From assembly GCF_044324875.1 (NCBI RefSeq), contig NZ_CP172185.1: DNA of 64,000 nt; one strand, written 5' to 3'. Shown one piece after another: positions 18,294-48,000 of this stretch. Each line of letters starts with the position of its first letter. The first letter of the stretch is position 1. The position numbers and the translations under genes are program-made. Below the pieces are notes generated by a model. The model searched no databases. It was given only the letters and a program-made list of their open reading frames with translations, and had not been told where the DNA came from. The stretch comes from Escherichia coli. GTDB taxonomy: Bacteria > Pseudomonadota > Gammaproteobacteria > Enterobacterales > Enterobacteriaceae.

Positions 18294-18352
18294 GCAAGAG
18301 TAGGCTGGATCAGACGCAGCCAGCGTCGCATCCGGCCTTCTTCTGCTCCAGC

Positions 18353-18382
18353 GCAAAAAGGCCATCCTGACGGATGGCCTTC
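18353..18382 (-). terminator. rrn operon terminator
   Basis: ggccatccgtcaggatggcc hairpin followed by a U-run on the minus strand, just 3' of the 5S gene. Confidence 0.7.
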
Positions 18383-18393
18383 TGCTTAATTTG

Positions 18394-18513
18394 ATGCCTG
18401 GCAGTTCCCTACTCTCGCATGGGGAGACCCCACACTACCATCGGCGCTACGGCGTTTCACTTCTGAGTTCGGCATGGGGTCAGGTGGGACCACCGCGCTA
18501 CGGCCGCCAGGCA
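18394..18513 (-). rRNA. rrfA: 5S ribosomal RNA
   Basis: Reverse complement reads TGCCTGGCGGCCGTAGCGCGGTGGTCCCACCTGACCCCATGCCGAACTCAG...GGAACTGCCAGGCAT. Confidence 0.97.
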
Positions 18514-18605
18514 AATTCTGTTTATCAGACCGCTTCTGCGTTCTGATTTAATCTGTATCAGGCTGAAAATCTTTCTCTCATCCGCCAAAACATCTTCGGC
18601 GTTGT

Positions 18606-21510
<2,905 letters not shown>

Positions 21511-21684
21511 TCACAACCCGAAGATGTTTCACTTCAGAGTTGCGAAAATTTGAGAGACTCACGAACAACTTTCGTTGTTCAGTGTTTCAATTTTCAGCTT
21601 GATCCAGATTTTTAAAGAGCAAAACTTCGCAGTGAACCTTTGCAGGTACACTCTGAAGTATTTTTTATTTAATCACTACAGAGA

Positions 21685-21760
21685 TGGTGGAGCTATGCGG
21701 GATCGAACCGCAGACCTCCTGCGTGCAAAGCAGGCGCTCTCCCAGCTGAGCTATAGCCCC
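21685..21760 (-). tRNA. alaT: tRNA-Ala (UGC), 16S-23S spacer
   Basis: Reverse complement GGGGCTATAGCTCAGCTGGGAGAGCGCCTGCTTTGCACGCAGGAGGTCTGCGGTTCGATCCCGCATAGCTCCACCA. Confidence 0.97.
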
Positions 21761-21802
21761 ATAACATGTAGTTAAAACCTCTTCAAATTTGCGGTGCAAA
21801 TT

Positions 21803-21879
<77 letters not shown>

Positions 21880-21947
21880 GTAGAGGTTTTACTGCTCATT
21901 TTCATCAGACAATCTGTGTGAGCACTGCAAAGCACAGTTCTTTAAGG

Positions 21948-23489
<1,542 letters not shown>

Positions 23490-23669
23490 AAAAGTTTGAT
23501 GCTCAAAGAATTAAACTTCGTAATAAATTACGTGTTCACTCTTGAGACTTGGTATTCATTTTTCGTCTTGCGACGTTAAGAATCCGTATCTTCGAGTGCC
23601 CACACAGATTGTCTGATAAATTGTTAAAGAGCAGTGCCGCTTCGCTTTTTCTCAGCGGCGCGGGGTGTG

Positions 23670-23845
23670 CATGATACGCTTTCCCGCTACAGAGTCAAGC
23701 ATTTTTTTCTTTTCCCTGTTGAGATTCTCAGGAGAACCCCGCTGACCCGGCGGCGTGTTTGCCGTTGTTCCGTGTCAGTGGTGGCGCATTATAGGGAGTT
23801 ATTCCGGCCTGACAAGAGGAAATTTAAAATAATTTTCTGACCGCG
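23670..23845 (-). promoter_or_regulatory. rrn P1/P2 promoter region with AT-rich UP element
   Basis: Minus strand carries TTGTCAGGCCGGAATAACTCCCTATAATGCGCC (P1) and downstream TTGACTCTGTAGCGGGAAAGCGTATCATGC (P2); AT-rich tract upstream. Confidence 0.75.
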
Positions 23846-23864
23846 CATTTTTTATTCTTTATGC

Positions 23865-42658: not shown

Positions 42659-43471
42659 ATGGCAACAACACAACAATCTGGATTTGCACCTGCTGCATCG
42701 CCTCTCGCTTCGACCATCGTTCAGACCCCGGACGACGCGATTGCGGCGGGCTTCACCTCTATCCCCTCACAAGGGGATAACATGCCTGCTTACCATGCCA
42801 GACCAAAGCAGAGCGATGGCCCACTGCCAGTGGTCATTGTAGTGCAGGAAATTTTTGGCGTGCATGAACATATCCGCGACATTTGTCGCCGTCTGGCGCT
42901 GGAGGGGTATCTGGCTATCGCACCTGAACTTTACTTCCGCGAAGGCGATCCGAATGATTTTGCCGATATCCCCACGTTACTTAGCGGTCTGGTAGCAAAA
43001 GTGCCTGACTCGCAGGTGCTGGCCGATCTCGATCATGTCGCCAGTTGGGCTTCCCGCAACGGCGGCGATGTACATCGTTTAATGATCACCGGATTCTGCT
43101 GGGGGGGACGTATCACCTGGCTGTATGCTGCGCATAACCCGCAACTGAAAGCGGCGGTGGCATGGTACGGCAAACTGACAGGCGATAAGTCGCTGAATTC
43201 ACCGAAACAACCTGTTGATATCGCAACCGATCTTAACGCGCCGGTTCTCGGCTTATATGGTGGTCAGGATAACAGCATTCCGCAGGAGAGCGTTGAAACC
43301 ATGCGCCAGGCGCTGCGGGCTGCTAATGCGAAAGCAGAGATTATCGTCTACCCGGATGCCGGGCATGCATTCAACGCCGATTATCGCCCGAGCTATCATG
43401 CCGAATCTGCGAAAGATGGCTGGCAGCGTATGCTGGAGTGGTTTAAGCAGTATGGTGGGAAGCGGAATTAG
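42659..43471 (+). CDS. ysgA: Putative dienelactone hydrolase family protein
   Basis: Start chosen at MATTQQSGFAPAAS (271 aa); alpha/beta hydrolase motifs (GFCWGG). Confidence 0.9.
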   Translation: MATTQQSGFAPAASPLASTIVQTPDDAIAAGFTSIPSQGDNMPAYHARPKQSDGPLPVVIVVQEIFGVHEHIRDICRRLALEGYLAIAPELYFREGDPNDFADIPTLLSGLVAKVPDSQVLADLDHVASWASRNGGDVHRLMITGFCWGGRITWLYAAHNPQLKAAVAWYGKLTGDKSLNSPKQPVDIATDLNAPVLGLYGGQDNSIPQESVETMRQALRAANAKAEIIVYPDAGHAFNADYRPSYHAESAKDGWQRMLEWFKQYGGKRN

Positions 43472-43862
43472 TTTCCTCTTAGTCTATATTTGAGATGGTG
43501 AGTGAACGAGTGCGTTTTGCTGCCATCTCTGTCCCCCAAAAAATAATCAGTATGAATTGATTGGAGAGCACGACTCCGCTATTTGACCTTAAGAAAGTCG
43601 GCAAGTAATAGTCATAAGTGAGTCTCTTCACTGGCAGACACCTTAGAGATTTACCATCAACTCCCATTCTCAAACAAACATTAATTATTATCAACACATT
43701 CACATTAATTATAAATTATCTCAGACCTTCCTGATAAAAAGATATTAAAGTGAAACATTTTGTTTTTCACATTTTAGTTCATCCCTTTTAGGCGTAAATA
43801 AAGGTAAAAAATAACAATACTATTTTTCTTTCACAAAAGAATTAACAAAAGGTTTTTCAAGG

Positions 43863-44996
43863 ATGAGTGATATTATTTACCTGAACATAACCGGAGAACA
43901 ACAAGGATGTATTTCCTCTCGTTGTGGAACGAGCGCATCAATAGGTAATCGCTGGCAGATTGGCCATGAAGATGAAATCTTCGCGTTCTCGCTCTCTAAT
44001 AGTATTACGAATACAGGCAAAGGGTCACAATTGCATGGCCTTAGTTTCTGTAAATTGATTGACAAAAGCTCCCCGTTACTTATTAACGCTATTAACAATA
44101 ACGAGCAGTTGTTCATGGAGTTTGACTTCTATCGGATCAATAGATTTGGTCGATGGGAGAAATATTACAACATTCAACTTCGCGGCGCGCTCTTATCAGC
44201 AATCAATCACCTGTTTACTGAGAACAATCTGGATACAGAAACCATCACTGTCAGTTATGAATATATACTCTCCAGGCATCTGATTGCTAATACTGAATTT
44301 AGTTATTTGGCATTTCCCGATAACTACAACCGTCTGTTTATACCACGGCCAAAAACTAAAGATGATAATGGCCTCAAAACACTCAATAGTAAAGCGGTTG
44401 GCAGACTGCTTGCTGCTGGCGGCATATACAATGGGAATATCGAAGGATTCAGGGAAACAGCAAACAAGTTGGGAGGAGATGCACCTGCTGGTTACGATCA
44501 AGTTATGGATAACAAAGGGTTACTCATCGCTGGTGCTTCAATAGTTGCTGGAGTTGTTCTGGGAAGAATGAGATTCCCTGATTTGGAATCACTTGAGCAT
44601 TTCGGAGCCAGAGGAGCAGTATCAGGAAGACCATTTAATCCCGACCTTGCCGGTGGTCCAATTGAAAACCTGACGATAGATGGCGTAACAATCAACAGGG
44701 AAGGTATCGCTATTGTTGAAAAGCATATCTCCAGATTTGATCATGATCCAGCTAATGATGTAATGATTTCAAGGCTAAAGAAAATAGCAAATAAAGAATT
44801 GCTTCCTGAAAAATACGATCTGAACTACTATACTCATGAATGTCGCGAGTATCAGCGTTATTGTAATTTAGGATGGGAAACAGGTGAACCGAAAGGTTTA
44901 GATGGATATGAATTATGGAATAATGTACATACTGCAACTCTAGAAGACTTTAAAATTAAAGATACTGACTTATTTCATCCGGATGCAAAAAAATGA
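43863..44996 (+). CDS. Hcp-domain protein with C-terminal extension (candidate Hcp-fused type VI secretion effector toxin)
   Basis: 377-aa ORF in AT-rich DNA. N-terminal ~155 aa follow the Hcp family pattern (YLNITGE...LHGLSFCKLIDKSSPLL...YYNIQL), alignable by eye with E. coli Hcp. The C-terminal ~220 aa have no family I can assign. Family call is by recall, not by search. Confidence 0.7.
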   Translation: MSDIIYLNITGEQQGCISSRCGTSASIGNRWQIGHEDEIFAFSLSNSITNTGKGSQLHGLSFCKLIDKSSPLLINAINNNEQLFMEFDFYRINRFGRWEKYYNIQLRGALLSAINHLFTENNLDTETITVSYEYILSRHLIANTEFSYLAFPDNYNRLFIPRPKTKDDNGLKTLNSKAVGRLLAAGGIYNGNIEGFRETANKLGGDAPAGYDQVMDNKGLLIAGASIVAGVVLGRMRFPDLESLEHFGARGAVSGRPFNPDLAGGPIENLTIDGVTINREGIAIVEKHISRFDHDPANDVMISRLKKIANKELLPEKYDLNYYTHECREYQRYCNLGWETGEPKGLDGYELWNNVHTATLEDFKIKDTDLFHPDAKK

Positions 44997-45250
44997 CGAT
45001 TACGATAGTTGAATTTAACGTGCTGAAAGTTATGGCTGAGAAAGATATTGACTGGAGCTGGATGGTGCTGGATCGTACTTTAGCTATACGAAATATTCCA
45101 GGATTTGGCAACGTAGCGAATATCGTAACAAAGCTGGTTAATCATGGGTTGGTTGATATCGTAAATGGTGAGGGCAACTCTAGACCACGCTACAGAGTTT
45201 CTCAATATGGATTGAATCTTATCAAAGAACAACAAGACAACCTCTTCTGA
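44993..45250 (+). CDS. Small hypothetical protein, candidate cognate immunity protein
   Basis: 85-aa ORF whose ATG overlaps the upstream stop (ATGA at 44993-44996); paralogue of the next ORF; conserved LDRTL-IR-IPGFGNV-NIV-KL--GLV block. Confidence 0.6.
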   Translation: MTITIVEFNVLKVMAEKDIDWSWMVLDRTLAIRNIPGFGNVANIVTKLVNHGLVDIVNGEGNSRPRYRVSQYGLNLIKEQQDNLF

Positions 45251-45309
45251 TCCAGCCATTACAGGAGCATGATTTACATTGTGATCTTTCAATAAGATAC
45301 TCATCAATT

Positions 45310-45570
45310 TTGGTACAGAATATCGTGATCACTAAAAATGAACTTAACGTGCTGAACGTTATGACTGAGAAAGATATAAACTGGAACTGGATGAATCTCG
45401 ATCGCACACTATCCATAAGGCAAATTCCAGGATTCGGGAATGTTGTTAACATTGTTAACAAATTAGCTAACGAAGGTTTGGTTATTATTGAGGATAGCGG
45501 GAATAAGTCTATGCCTCACTACCACGTTAGTGAAAAGGGATACAATCTCGTGCAACGTGAGAATAAATAA
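45310..45570 (+). CDS. Small hypothetical protein, paralogue of the preceding gene (candidate second or orphan immunity protein)
   Basis: 86-aa ORF with roughly 60% identity by eye to the 44993-45250 product, plus clear nucleotide similarity; track start is TTG at 45310, and an in-frame GTG at 45325 is an alternative start. Confidence 0.5.
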   Translation: MVQNIVITKNELNVLNVMTEKDINWNWMNLDRTLSIRQIPGFGNVVNIVNKLANEGLVIIEDSGNKSMPHYHVSEKGYNLVQRENK

Positions 45571-45676
45571 CGTAGCGTTGATTACTGAACGGAATCACTC
45601 AAAACTGTGTTTTGCGAAAAAAACGATTCGGTTATTTCTGCTCCTGAAGATCAGCTTCAATCTGGCACTCATGCAA

Positions 45677-45702
45677 AATGGCTTCCAGTGCTGGAAGCCA
45701 TT
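45677..45702. repeat. 26-bp near-perfect palindrome between the insertion and the metE 3' end
   Basis: aatggcttccag tg ctggaagccatt; possible bidirectional terminator. Confidence 0.5.
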
Positions 45703-45738
45703 ATCGTACTGCAATTTACAGTGACTCGTTAATATTCG

Positions 45739-48000
45739 TCATCCCCGACGCAAATTCTGCGCCGCCTGCACCATGTTCGCCAGTGCCGCGCGGGTTTCTG
45801 GCCAGCCGCGCGTTTTCAGGCCACAGTCCGGGTTGACCCACAGACGCTCTGCCGGAATGCGTTTTGCCGCTTTCTTCAGCAAGGCTTCAATCCATTCCAC
45901 GCTCGGTACGTTTGGCGAGTGAATGTCATAGACGCCAGGACCGATTTCATTTGGATAATCAAACTCTTCAAACGACTCCAGCAACTCCATGTCGGAACGC
46001 GAGGTTTCGATGGTGATGACGTCTGCGTCCAGCGCCGCAATCGAATCCATGATGTCGTTGAACTCGCAGTAACACATGTGAGTGTGGATTTGTGTGTCAT
46101 CTTTCGCCACGGCGGCGTTGATACGGAAAGCCTCCACGCCCCACTGGAGATAGGCATCCCAGTCGCCGCGACGCAGCGGTAAACCTTCGCGCAGTGCCGG
46201 TTCATCAATCTGGATGATGCCAATTCCAGCGGCTTCCAGGTCCGCCACTTCATCACGCAGCGCCAGCGCAATTTGTTTGGCGATGGTTTCACGGCTGACA
46301 TCTTCACGCGGGAACGACCAGCAGAGAATGGTCACCGGGCCGGTCAGCATCCCTTTCACCGGTTTGTCAGTCAGCGATTGCGCATACTTCGCCCACTCAA
46401 TGGTAATCGGTGCCGGGCGGCTAACGTCACCAATGACAATCGGCGGCTTCACGCAGCGGGAACCGTAGCTCTGTACCCAACCGTTTTGCGTAAAGACAAA
46501 ACCGTCGAGATGCTCGCCAAAGTATTCCACCATGTCATTACGCTCGGCCTCGCCATGCACCAGCACATCCAGACCTAAACGTTCCTGCTCAACAATGGCC
46601 TGCTTGATATGTTCCGCAATGCCCGTGCGGTAGTTGTTGGCGTCGAGATTACCCTTTTTGAAATCCAGACGCAGGGTACGAATTTCCGTGGTTTGCGGGA
46701 AGGAACCAATCGTGGTGGTCGGCCACGCGGGCAGTTTAAAACGCGCACGCTGGGCTTCAGCACGCACTTCATAGACATTCGCACGCTGACTGTCCTGAGC
46801 GGTGATCGCCGCCAGACGCTTTTCTACTGCCGGATTATGTACGCGGGTTGAGTGACGACGCGCCTGAATCGGAGCGCTCCACTCTGCCAGAGCAGCCGTG
46901 TCACCACTGTTCAGCGCATCGCGCAGCAGTGCCAGTTCATGACATTTTTGCAGGGCGAAGGCAAACCAGCTTTTCACTTCTGCATCAAGACGCGTTTCCA
47001 CGCTCAGGTCGATGGGGCTGTGCAGCAGTGAGCAGGAAGATGCCACCCACAAATCGCGTTTGCCGACAATGTCCTTAATTTGCGCATACTTCTCGGTAAG
47101 ATCGGCGCGCCAGACGTTACGACCATTGATCAGACCCGCAGACAGCAGCCAGTCAGAAGGCAGACGCTTGTGCAGTTCAGCAACGTCATCTTTACCATGT
47201 ACAAGATCGACATGCAGACCCTGAACAGGCAGCGCAGTAATCGTGTCGAGATTTGGCGTTACGCCTTCAAAATAGGTGGTCAGCAGCAGTTTCACCTGTC
47301 CCTGGAGCGCGTCGTAAGCGGGTTTGTATGCGTCCAGCCACGCCTGCGGTAGTTCCAGTACCAGCGCTGGTTCGTCGATCTGTACCCACTCAATACCGCG
47401 TTTTGCCAGTTCTGCCAGCACTTGCTGATAAATCGGAAGAATGTCGTTCAGCAGGCTCAGGCGATCAAACTGTTCACCTTTCACTTTACCCAGCCACAGG
47501 TAGGTAACCGGCCCCAGCAGCACAGGTTTCACCTTGTGGCCCAGCGCCAGCGCCTCGTCCACTTCCTCCAGCAGCTGCGTCCAGGTCAGTTTGAACTGTT
47601 GGCCTTTAACGAACTCCGGCACCATGTAGTGATAGTTGGTGTTAAACCATTTGGTCATTTCCGCTGCCGCCGCAGGTTCACCAGTCGGCGCACGTCCACG
47701 ACCAATACGGAACAGGGTGTCGATATCTACCGAACCATCTTTGTTCTGATGACGTGGCGGAACATTACCCAGCAGCAGACTGGTGGTCAGTACATGATCG
47801 TACCAGGCAAAATCGCCCACCGGCAGCAGGTCGATACCCGCCTGCTTTTGTTGATCCCAGTGACGGGCACGTAATTCACGCCCAACCGCCAGCAGTTCTT
47901 CACGCGTGGAGTTCCCCGCCCAATAACTTTCTTGCGCTTTTTTCAGCTCGCGACGCAGGCCAACGCGAGGGAAACCGAGGGTGTGATTCAATATTGTCAT
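45739..48000 (-). CDS. metE: Cobalamin-independent methionine synthase
   Basis: 753-aa [32 protein letters not shown]... Confidence 0.97.

Follow-up and report, generated by a model that had tools for sequence, protein, structure and literature searches.

Our analysis of a 64,000-nucleotide stretch of the Escherichia coli contig NZ_CP172185.1 (the window) shows that a single gene joins an Hcp tube-protein domain to a C-terminal cassette which is found in many other toxin-like proteins and is regularly followed by a small gene of one of two immunity families. The locus is probably an orphan 'evolved Hcp' antibacterial effector of the Hcp-ET type that works by the mechanism proposed below. The features discussed here are as follows.

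42659..43471, plus strand: ysgA (dienelactone hydrolase family), left flank
43463..45742, no strand: acquired island between ysgA and metE (breaks in K-12 homology, GC)
43863..44996, plus strand: hcp-ET gene, a single ORF with an ATG start, 377 aa
43863..44303, plus strand: Hcp/TssD tube-protein domain, residues 1-147 (TIGR03344, Pfam and PDB matches; strands in the AF2 model)
44310..44570, plus strand: linker or pre-toxin module, residues ~150-236 (fused elsewhere to other toxins)
44517..44564, plus strand: hydrophobic Gly/Ala-rich segment GLLIAGASIVAGVVLG, residues 219-234 (Kyte-Doolittle)
44571..44993, plus strand: putative toxin domain, residues 237-377, conserved core ~245-377 (544 clusters; alignment A1; AF2)
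44993..45250, plus strand: imm1, 85 aa, probably the cognate immunity gene (start and hcp-ET stop overlap in ATGA)
45325..45570, plus strand: imm2, second immunity-family gene, 81 aa (GTG start in RefSeq; longest ORF from 45310)
45739..48000, minus strand: metE, right flank

The hcp-ET gene and its Hcp domain

An intact ORF with exactly the predicted boundaries (43863-44996) was confirmed. The original prediction had held that its first ~155 residues follow the Hcp family pattern and was to be abandoned if the N-terminal domain lacked a significant Hcp-family match; residues 1-147 matched TIGR03344 (type VI tube protein TssD) with E=2.8e-36 and a score of 124.9 bits, where the curated threshold is 58.9 bits, and the N-terminal domain also matched Pfam T6SS_HCP (PF05638; E=4.8e-14) and the solved Hcp 6a2v in the PDB (E=8.5e-15). 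Both motifs that had been pointed out are present, the YYNI-L block as YYNIQL (residues 101-106) and the DKSSP core as CKLIDKSSPLL (residues 63-73), although the spacing of the latter is strictly K-x-x-DKSSP-L and not K-x-DKSSP-L, a minor slip. Structure prediction of the full protein with AF2 returned beta-strands between residues 4 and 139, but the model reached a pLDDT of only 61.6, did not resolve the linker and was too poor to show where the toxin lies with respect to the Hcp ring.

Canonical Hcp/TssD proteins have ~160 aa and no added domain, whereas this one has 377 aa, with residues 148-377 lying outside the Hcp models. The continuation had been put at ~220 residues, close to the ~222 found beyond the ~155-residue Hcp portion, and it consists of two parts, a linker (~150-236) followed by a ~130-aa toxin domain (~245-377). 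In RefSeq the product is WP_001521777.1 (from a genome with an identical locus), for which 'tube protein TssD' is the sole label. The exact 377-aa sequence was found on 272 contigs, 1511 sequences fall into its cluster at 90% identity, and orthologues of 379-382 aa exist in Salmonella and Citrobacter. At the DNA level the Hcp domain is closest to that of yhhZ (75% identical).

An acquired island between ysgA and metE

Homology to K-12 stops at 43462 and restarts at 45743, and the 2.28 kb in between have a GC content of 30-42% against 54-57% in the flanks; judged from these breaks and from its composition, the island is horizontally acquired. It stands in place of ~55 bp at the K-12 ysgA/metE junction, where the gap between the two genes is only 39 bp. 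No direct or inverted repeats mark its ends, no RNA elements were found in it with Rfam, and promoter scans gave weak consensus matches only. The locus, counted at >=80% of its length, is held by 841 of 5426 complete E. coli genomes (~15%), with Nissle 1917, O6:K2:H1 and APEC O2:K1:H4 strains among the carriers, and truncated versions of hcp-ET occur in UTI89, APEC O1, Shigella and some O145.

Neither vgrG nor a chaperone nor any other T6SS gene adjoins hcp-ET, and the locus and the T6SS cluster lie ~950 kb apart. The T6SS is complete in NZ_AP022049.1, a genome that carries a 100% identical locus: tssA, B, C, E, F, G, H, J, K, L and M are present, and the cluster, located at tRNA-Asp, also has Hcp, VgrG and Rhs.

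The putative C-terminal toxin domain

The last ~130 residues of the protein match 544 clusters at 50% identity from many phyla, and in these relatives, which are 993-5214 aa long, the domain forms the very C-terminal end. Its carriers include a PAAR protein in a VgrG-DcrB(DUF1795)-PAAR setting, a 5157-aa protein with Rhs/YD-shell matches, an SpvB/TcdB Tc-type protein, and WXG100 (T7SS) and RHS-repeat proteins. In 19 of 43 full-length relatives a Pyocin_S domain lies directly before it, and Foldseek against AFDB50 matched it, with E 1e-13 to 1e-25, to proteins of the S-type pyocin and PAAR kinds and to ones named 'colicin D' and 'klebicin D'. The E. coli plasmid pS19_141-d codes for a 747-aa protein that ends in this domain; a 90-aa gene, which overlaps it by 4 nt, comes next and then a gene for colicin lysis, and Klebsiella plasmids of 5.8 kb share the same operon layout. 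By this homology to PAAR, Rhs, Tc and pyocin/colicin cassettes, the extension would be a toxin domain, as expected of an Hcp-ET.

The AF2 model of the domain alone (pLDDT 92.4) is mostly alpha-helical. The alignment of relatives has eight invariant residues (H288, F292, R304, D319, H325, E326, E329 and H356) in addition to several conserved arginines. The extension had no match in Pfam even at E<=10; 53 relatives had no toxin family in Pfam-A at E<=0.001, and no Pfam-A family covers the domain in the 43 full-length ones. Likewise, no model of NCBIfam, PADLOC or PHROG matched the domain, no PDB entry matched it by sequence or by fold, and it did not match the models or structures of HNH/Colicin-DNase, E3 'Cytotoxic', Colicin_D or Colicin_E5. 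No experiments on the hcp-ET protein or on the toxin domain were found in the searchable literature.

Several candidate identities were considered and rejected. The motifs of HEPN (Rx4-6H) and Fic/Doc are absent from the sequence by eye, and Carocin S2 is a colicin-D-type RNase with its site at K692/H696/S762/W764. The motifs of Ntox28 and of other all-alpha toxins, as given in the searched passages of Zhang et al. 2012 (PMC3482391), do not fit. For Ntox28, with its '[DN]HxxE' motif, this is because the spacing in the toxin domain is H-E-x-x-E, and Pfam, whose library should include an Ntox28 model, gave no match either. The toxin families in the table passages searched in the same work (PMC3482391) also gave no match.

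The linker

The conserved core of the linker begins at KTLNSKAVGRLLAAGG (residue 172). In relatives this module joins other toxins (Colicin_D, DUF6883 and DUF4258) and is also attached to non-Hcp N-termini; in one relative it carries a Colicin_D tRNase. The linker is predicted by AF2 to be helical, with low confidence, and no Pfam model matches it. The Pfam search found no Pyocin_S domain in the window protein itself. The segment GLLIAGASIVAGVVLG has the highest 19-residue Kyte-Doolittle mean of the protein (1.69), and its hydrophobic nature is kept in relatives; it may serve in membrane insertion.

The putative immunity genes

A translationally coupled small gene had been predicted downstream, and indeed the start codon of an 85-aa ORF and the hcp-ET stop overlap in ATGA. 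At 74 of 82 loci a gene of ~76-161 aa lies directly 3' of the toxin and is a member of one or the other of two immunity families. A homologue of imm1 (jackhmmer seeded with imm1) comes directly after the toxin in 48 of the 82 loci, from many phyla, and starts between ~-19 and +148 nt from the toxin stop, at <=25 nt in most of the 48. A further 26 loci have the second family, which is possibly related to that of imm1. In an hhalign comparison the two gave a probability of 45% with E=2e-4, which is only suggestive of homology.

The profile of the imm1 family matched the PadR-type winged helix 2esh with E=8.8e-6 and 3l7w with 7.6e-5. With Imm1 alone, no Pfam match falls below E=0.2; among 29 family members, a single one has a PadR Pfam match at E<=0.001. 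The 81-85 aa of Imm2 and Imm1 compare with 108-207 residues in the matched PadR/MarR chains, and neither protein has a signal peptide or a membrane segment.

The two genes of the window probably differ in which toxin allele they go with. Imm2 is 59% identical to Imm1, and the O145:H28 allele of the locus, which has a single immunity gene, codes for a product 87.7% identical to Imm2 and 60.5% to Imm1. Between that allele and the one in the window, identity is 98.7% in the Hcp domain, 93% in the linker and 77% in the toxin domain; thus the cassette has been swapped between alleles, and the sequence of the immunity gene co-varies with that of the toxin. The overlap, the 48 of 82 loci and this co-variation suggest an immunity gene immediately downstream, as in Hcp-ETs, and imm1 is likely the cognate one. 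Since imm2 matches the immunity gene of the O145:H28 allele, it is probably an immunity gene left as an orphan, whose partner would be the alternative toxin allele. The proposal of an Hcp-ET effector/immunity pair is therefore supported both by the homology of the extension to C-terminal toxin cassettes and by the downstream family.

Proposed mechanism and alternative explanations

We propose that the N-terminal Hcp domain would be built into the inner tube of the T6SS, so that secretion of the protein would take place with the tube and the toxin would be fired with it into neighbouring bacteria. The mostly helical C-terminal domain of ~130 residues would be the killing domain, with a target in the cytoplasm of the attacked cell. 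It would be a hydrolase, most likely a nuclease and probably metal-dependent, whose catalytic chemistry may centre on the invariant H288, D319, H325-E326-x-x-E329 and H356 together with the conserved arginines. Cytoplasmic action is suggested because relatives have Pyocin_S, because Colicin_D is found on the same linker, and because Imm1 and Imm2 have neither a signal peptide nor a membrane segment. Pyocin_S is an inner-membrane translocation domain that has been reported exclusively with toxins bringing nucleases into the cytoplasm (PMC9040868). The ~85-residue linker with its hydrophobic Gly/Ala-rich helix would be a reusable pre-toxin module, and it may aid the toxin in crossing or engaging the inner membrane of the target. 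Imm1, as a putative winged-helix protein of 85 aa, would bind the toxin and neutralise it in the producer and its kin, and Imm2 would protect against strains with the alternative toxin allele.

A broader joint reading is possible, and we hold it tentatively, at slightly less than an even chance for the whole. Under it, the C-terminal ~130 residues would represent an uncharacterised killing-domain family with a fold that has no solved relative and an H...D...H-E-x-x-E...H site, and a new PadR-like winged-helix immunity family would neutralise it. The domain would then be a further cytotoxic class, shared by colicin/pyocin bacteriocins and by toxins of the T6SS, Rhs, Tc and T7SS types in bacteria ranging from Proteobacteria to Cyanobacteria. 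Its biochemical activity, or the target that it acts on, may be unlike those of the known classes (DNase, rRNase, tRNase, pore-forming and lipid II), and the linker with its hydrophobic helix would provide a second route to the cytoplasm, independent of Pyocin_S.

The same architecture and delivery could serve a killing domain that is not a nuclease, for instance an enzyme that resembles a metallopeptidase, one that hydrolyses nucleotides or NAD(P), or a domain that blocks an essential cytoplasmic protein without any enzymatic action. We consider this unlikely, though well worth weighing: the domain has no similarity in sequence or fold to any known nuclease, its invariant His/Glu/Asp set suits many metal-dependent hydrolases, the H-E-x-x-E plus H arrangement resembles a permuted gluzincin site, and the domain occurs in Tc-type (SpvB/TcdB) and T7SS WXG100 proteins, systems with many toxin chemistries. 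A nuclease is nevertheless favoured by the several conserved arginines, which would suit phosphate binding, by the size of the immunity proteins, as ~85 aa is typical of those of nuclease colicins, and by the position directly after Pyocin_S in 19 of the 43 relatives, given the exclusive company of that domain. It is also conceivable, with a low probability, that the T6SS has ceased to fire this protein and that the orphan locus is decaying or has been domesticated. The toxin-immunity pair would then persist in the manner of an addiction module of the toxin-antitoxin type, or selection would act on the immunity genes alone, as a defence against attackers. YhhZ, an evolved Hcp of this type, persists in K-12, which has no T6SS, and fused Hcps can therefore outlive the machine; Blondel et al. 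(PMC2907695) proposed that some evolved Hcps are unlinked to a T6SS, our locus has no T6SS neighbours, and several lineages have truncated toxin genes with retained immunity genes. Against this stand the many contigs and cluster members with an intact sequence, the complete T6SS of a genome that carries the identical island, and Hcp-ET1, which is likewise an orphan and yet is delivered by T6SS2; moreover, the alleles differ in their toxin cassette but hardly at all in the Hcp domain, a pattern that points to selection for a delivery domain that still works.

That the downstream small genes are MarR/PadR-type regulators and the extension is non-toxic seems very improbable to us. Some RefSeq and UniRef records do say 'MarR family transcriptional regulator', and the family profile does resemble PadR/MarR winged helices, but the proteins are shorter than the matched chains, the imm1 homologues directly follow the toxin stop across many phyla, the small-gene sequences co-vary with the toxin allele, and the colicin operon has an equivalent small gene between the activity gene and the lysis gene. 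Finally, a sequencing or assembly artefact, or a frameshift fusion of two genes, which the original prediction had itself named as a risk, is refuted, since hundreds of complete genomes, independent of one another, share the uninterrupted 377-aa ORF, which other genera have too.

Significance

Hcp-toxin fusions as a kind were already described in 2009 and 2017 (Blondel et al., PMC2907695; Ma et al., as reported in passages of PMC6730261). The killing domain of this copy has no curated model or similar solved structure and yet is common: it is also present on colicin-type and klebicin-type plasmids and uses at least four other delivery routes in several phyla. Because hcp-ET is labelled as a tube protein only, and the antidotes are labelled 'hypothetical' or 'MarR regulator' in the sources, genome surveys of bacterial weaponry miss the system. 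The list of cytotoxic mechanisms of colicins and pyocins is short, and knowing the activity of the toxin would extend it by one class and would explain part of the strain-on-strain competition in gut E. coli, a probiotic strain included. The two-allele locus with its retained orphan immunity gene is also a tidy natural system for the study of toxin-immunity specificity.

Comparison with known systems

According to the portions of the reviews consulted (PMC6730261, PMC6099711), Hcp-ET1 to ET4 are antibacterial toxins that the T6SS delivers, and their immunity genes, in some cases duplicated, lie downstream (Ma et al. 2017 via PMC6730261), Hcp-ET3-4 has three immunity gene copies (Ma et al. 2017 via both reviews), and the five published Hcp-ET clans have HNH DNase, DUF2235/Tle1, Pyocin_S, Colicin-DNase as well as papain-like peptidase domains. 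As far as these sources and the consulted parts of Blondel et al. 2009 (PMC2907695) describe them, Hcp-ET1-ET5 and the 'evolved Hcps' resemble the window protein in having an N-terminal Hcp and a C-terminal toxin at a locus that can be an orphan, in having the immunity gene directly downstream and sometimes duplicated, and in being found in E. coli, Salmonella and Citrobacter. Unlike them, the toxin domain of the window matches no Pfam family behind the five clans as listed there, and a different, unmodelled linker with a hydrophobic helix stands where Pyocin_S would be. Hcp-ET1, with its HNH and colicin E7/E9 domains, was rejected as an identity. YhhZ and Usp, evolved Hcps of E. coli, share the overall architecture, but their extensions are recognisable HNH or Pyocin_S domains, from which the linker and toxin of the window differ.

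In nuclease colicins and S-type pyocins (ColE2-E9, ColE3, ColD, ColE5, S1-S4, S6 and G), the killing domain follows Pyocin_S, the position that relatives of the toxin domain fill in 19 of 43 cases and in colicin-type operons, where a small, apparently cytoplasmic immunity protein of 84-96 aa comes next, with a lysis gene on ColE1-type plasmids. The mostly alpha-helical domain is nevertheless unlike the HNH DNase, E3 rRNase, ColD and ColE5 tRNase domains in sequence and structure, the imm1-family profile resembles a PadR-type winged helix, unlike Im7/Im9, ImE3 and ImD, and delivery in the window would be by fusion to Hcp and not by receptor and translocation domains. The PAAR/Rhs/Tc polymorphic toxins, in the passages of Zhang et al. 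2012 (PMC3482391) searched, share with the window a swappable C-terminal cassette, a linked immunity gene and an orphan immunity gene kept after cassette displacement. T6EC4 of Citrobacter koseri (Geller et al. 2024, PMC11148199) was rejected as an identity, since its Tox-REase-5-like fold is unrelated to the helical fold that AF2 gives for the window domain. In its design it is similar to the window protein, an Hcp with a toxin that has no Pfam annotation in an orphan operon, and it was toxic in experiment and neutralised by the product of the downstream gene (PMC11148199).

Results

The original prediction held that the ORF at 43863-44996 begins as an Hcp-family protein and continues for about 220 residues past it, and both parts of this description were borne out. 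Residues 1-147 are covered by TIGR03344, the NCBIfam model of the TssD/Hcp tube protein, with 124.9 bits (E=2.8e-36) against a curated cut-off of 58.9 bits, and the same residues match Pfam T6SS_HCP (E=4.8e-14) and, among solved Hcp structures, 6a2v (E=8.5e-15). The Hcp core motif and the YYNI-L block that had been named are present as KLIDKSSPL (residues 64-72) and YYNIQL (residues 101-106), and the ORF extends ~222 residues beyond the Hcp part. The fusion is real rather than an artefact joining separate ORFs, with hcp-ET being one ORF whose exact 377-aa product is found on 272 contigs, and the coupled small gene noted downstream overlaps the hcp-ET stop codon as ATGA at 44993. The 90%-identity cluster of the protein holds 1511 member sequences, Salmonella and Citrobacter have orthologues 379-382 aa long, and RefSeq names the product 'type VI secretion system tube protein TssD'.

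Features of the locus and of related loci
43463-45742: island of 2.28 kb; K-12 homology ends at 43462 and restarts at 45743
43863..44996, + strand: hcp-ET, single ORF of 377 codons with ATG start
44376-44570 (residues ~172-236): conserved linker module, also in proteins P0168, P0207, P0263, P0257 and P0260
44993..45250, + strand: imm1, in ATGA overlap with the hcp-ET stop codon
45325..45570, + strand: imm2, 59% identical to imm1
L087 1-29771: type VI secretion (T6SS) cluster of NZ_AP022049.1, at 3.949-3.980 Mb
L085 2637-5385: colicin-type operon of E. coli plasmid pS19_141-d
L086 2407-5725: klebicin-type operon of Klebsiella plasmid NZ_AP024178.1

The island contains hcp-ET and the two small genes on the same strand and nothing else, and its GC content is 30-42% against 54-57% in the flanks. 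It lies within the E. coli chromosomal gene order rmuC-udp-ysgA-[island]-metE-metR, where the ysgA-metE gap of K-12 is 39 bp. At least 80% of the locus is present in 841 of 5426 complete E. coli genomes, with carriers including Nissle 1917, O6:K2:H1, APEC O2:K1:H4 and an ST38 strain, while O145:H28 carries a different allele. Since no T6SS genes adjoin hcp-ET or occur elsewhere in the 64-kb window, the locus is an orphan.

Some details of the setting were also recorded. The K-12 spacer (L002 5312-5366) includes a hairpin rich in GC, GACCGGGTGGTATTACCACCCGGTTT, that probably serves as a bidirectional terminator and that the island replaces, and the final ysgA codons in the window are unlike those of K-12. 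The AT-rich left end of the island carries, upstream of hcp-ET, an opposite-strand ORF of 74 aa (43479-43703, -) that RefSeq leaves unannotated in the matching genome and that is probably not a gene. In many genomes with a 100% identical locus an IS1 or IS3 lies between ysgA and hcp-ET (for example L001 3445-4142 in NZ_AP022049.1; the window copy has none there), and as this interval is likely the hcp-ET promoter region, expression of the gene could be affected. Unrelated to hcp-ET, adjacent tRNA-Ala(tgc) and tRNA-Ile(gat) genes at 21685-21879 (-) mark an rRNA operon spacer in an ORF-poor stretch at ~18300-23860.

When residues 151-377 were searched against 1.84 billion representative proteins, the extension fell into two parts, a linker (~150-245) and a C-terminal domain (~245-377). 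After the linker core, KTLNSKAVGRLLAAGGIYNGN...GGDAPAGY, comes a hydrophobic stretch rich in Gly and Ala (residues 219-234), the hydropathy peak of the whole protein; no Pfam model matches the module, and the linker is poorly defined in the full-length structural model (pLDDT 61.6). It is common to Hcp fusions and to proteins with other N-termini, namely PF26362 (probably DUF8093) in Cronobacter, Atlantibacter and Citrobacter, and an unrelated stretch of ~130 aa in Pantoea and Lonsdalea. Some relatives carry different toxins behind it (Colicin_D, DUF6883 or DUF4258), and its role may be that of a pre-toxin module or one for membrane entry.

The C-terminal domain is autonomous, forming 544 clusters at 50% identity, and is nearly always found at the extreme C-terminus, sometimes of proteins of 993-5214 aa. 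Relatives end a PAAR protein in a VgrG-DcrB(DUF1795)-PAAR operon, a 5157-aa protein with Rhs/YD-shell matches, an SpvB/TcdB Tc-type protein, and WXG100 and RHS-repeat proteins; a Pyocin_S domain is present in 19 of 43 full-length relatives. Its AlphaFold2 model is mostly helical (pLDDT 92.4) and matches the C-termini of AFDB50 proteins (E 1e-13 to 1e-25, TM 0.8-0.97) named S-type pyocin, pyosin/cloacin translocation domain protein, 'colicin D', 'klebicin D' and PAAR protein, together with a ferredoxin-domain protein of Pectobacterium. Scanning one genome per species gave 163 relatives in Gamma-, Beta- and Alphaproteobacteria, Cyanobacteria, Planctomycetes, Bacteroidota, Acidobacteria and Actinobacteria. 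On all comparative criteria the domain is a predicted polymorphic-toxin and bacteriocin killing domain. Cyanobacterial copies are mostly stand-alone proteins (~131-159 aa, typically ~135 aa; L028-L046, L049, L063, L076), and the immunity-family gene behind them is in many cases longer (84-161 aa).

The domain also ends plasmid-borne proteins. The ColE1-like pS19_141-d (NZ_CP075644.1, 6995 bp) has an operon of a 747-aa protein ending in the toxin domain, a 90-aa gene that shares 4 nt with it and a lysis gene for colicin release, and Klebsiella plasmids of 5783 bp are arranged alike, so that both types combine an activity gene of 747-780 aa, a small gene of 87-90 aa and a lysis gene. NZ_AP024178.1 has an additional 'bacteriocin immunity protein' gene. 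We found no name for a colicin carrying this domain.

Downstream genes were surveyed at 82 loci, 79 from the one-genome-per-species scan and three others, and at nearly every one an ORF on the same strand, usually 76-96 aa long, starts within ~25 nt of the toxin stop. A jackhmmer search seeded with imm1 recovered this ORF in 48 of the loci. A second family (motifs VKNESVEDVL...LDRM...KGPNWKEPKF) takes this place in another 26, mostly pyocin/colicin-type loci of Pseudomonas, Serratia, Pantoea, Klebsiella and Erwinia. Most others have a frameshifted toxin or lack an ORF that qualified within the searched range. Alignment of the two families by hhalign (probability 45%, E=2e-4) is only suggestive of a relationship.

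Discussion

Both small genes are labelled 'hypothetical' in RefSeq and 'MarR family transcriptional regulator' in other sources. The latter label is explained by the resemblance of the imm1 family to PadR-like winged-helix proteins (2esh, E=8.8e-6; 3l7w, E=7.6e-5) and by weak Pfam matches to PadR, HxlR and MarR. We nevertheless mark imm1 and imm2 as putative immunity proteins rather than regulators, because of their gene position, short length and co-variation with the toxin. Neither has a signal peptide or membrane segment in its sequence, which points to the cytoplasm as the toxin's site of action.

The presence of two such genes is best read against O145:H28 strain RM13516, whose 382-aa Hcp-ET lies at the same chromosomal site (L088 1501-2884). 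Protein identity to the window is 98.7% in the Hcp part and 93% in the linker but only 77% in the toxin domain, with DNA identity dropping from 98-100% to 68-73% past about nucleotide 800 of hcp-ET, and the one immunity gene of that strain shares 87.7% identity with imm2 but 60.5% with imm1. The window locus thus reads as toxin allele A with its putative cognate immunity gene, imm1, and a retained, orphan allele B immunity gene, imm2, the pattern classically left where a C-terminal cassette has been displaced in a polymorphic toxin locus. About 119 of 848 carrier genomes fall within 80-95% identity bands, and those sampled have allele B with one immunity gene. Toxin-cassette homology and the linked immunity-family gene support the predicted Hcp-ET-type effector/immunity pair.

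Delivery of the protein by a T6SS would be expected from published fusions, as Hcp-ET1 to ET4 undergo T6SS-dependent delivery (PMC6730261), and published work finds this for orphan fusions too. NZ_AP022049.1, whose hcp-ET locus is 100% identical to the window, carries a full set of T6SS genes clustered at tRNA-Asp (tssA, B, C, E, F, G, H, J, K, L(icmH), M, tagH, vasI and VasL, with two canonical hcp, vgrG and a Rhs gene coding for a frameshifted Rhs core protein). Two observations call for caution. The Hcp-domain DNA is nearest to that of YhhZ (75%), a fusion that, according to PMC6730261, persists in K-12, which is without a T6SS. In addition, truncated copies (P0002, P0098, P0105 and P0118 among them) are common in some lineages, such as UTI89 (Q1R4A0, 229 aa) and APEC O1 (A0A0H2Z4D2, 163 aa, named 'colicin'), with fragments also in Shigella and some O145. 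The C-terminal fragments have 142-229 aa and are variously named 'colicin' or 'HNH endonuclease', and one fragment of 286 aa retains the Hcp Pfam match. The toxin gene seems to decay repeatedly, and immunity genes are retained in the truncated or partial records sampled.

As to mechanism, residues H288, F292, R304, D319, H325, E326, E329 and H356 are invariant across the family, R256, R291, R332, Y333, W352-N353 and the T359-L-E361 motif are nearly so, and in the model the conserved residues fall on four consecutive helices. E329 lies one turn of helix after H325, with E326 alongside, a layout that would be characteristic of a metal site having a general base. Pyocin_S is an inner-membrane translocation domain whose reported partners are exclusively toxins carrying nucleases into the cytoplasm (PMC9040868). 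Its position before the toxin in the 19 relatives, and the fact that the linker can also carry a colicin D tRNase, led us to propose a cytoplasm-acting, probably metal-dependent nuclease or phosphodiesterase, in which the hydrophobic linker helix may, speculatively, stand in for Pyocin_S in cytoplasmic entry. The chemistry is the weakest link of this proposal, its chances being even at best, with a peptidase-like or nucleotide-hydrolase activity as the leading alternative.

The hcp-ET locus is a candidate of a familiar kind, an Hcp-fused T6SS effector accompanied by its immunity gene; the architecture was already established, the gene was already in RefSeq, and current understanding is not overturned. 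The novelty lies in the payload: a predicted killing domain that is widespread but lacks both a family model and a structural assignment, paired with a putative immunity family resembling winged helices. The locus itself is neatly organised, with two alleles and a probable orphan immunity gene. Colicin-like plasmids use the same domain as Hcp-ET, and this payload is a tangible lead, open to testing, towards a new class of toxin.
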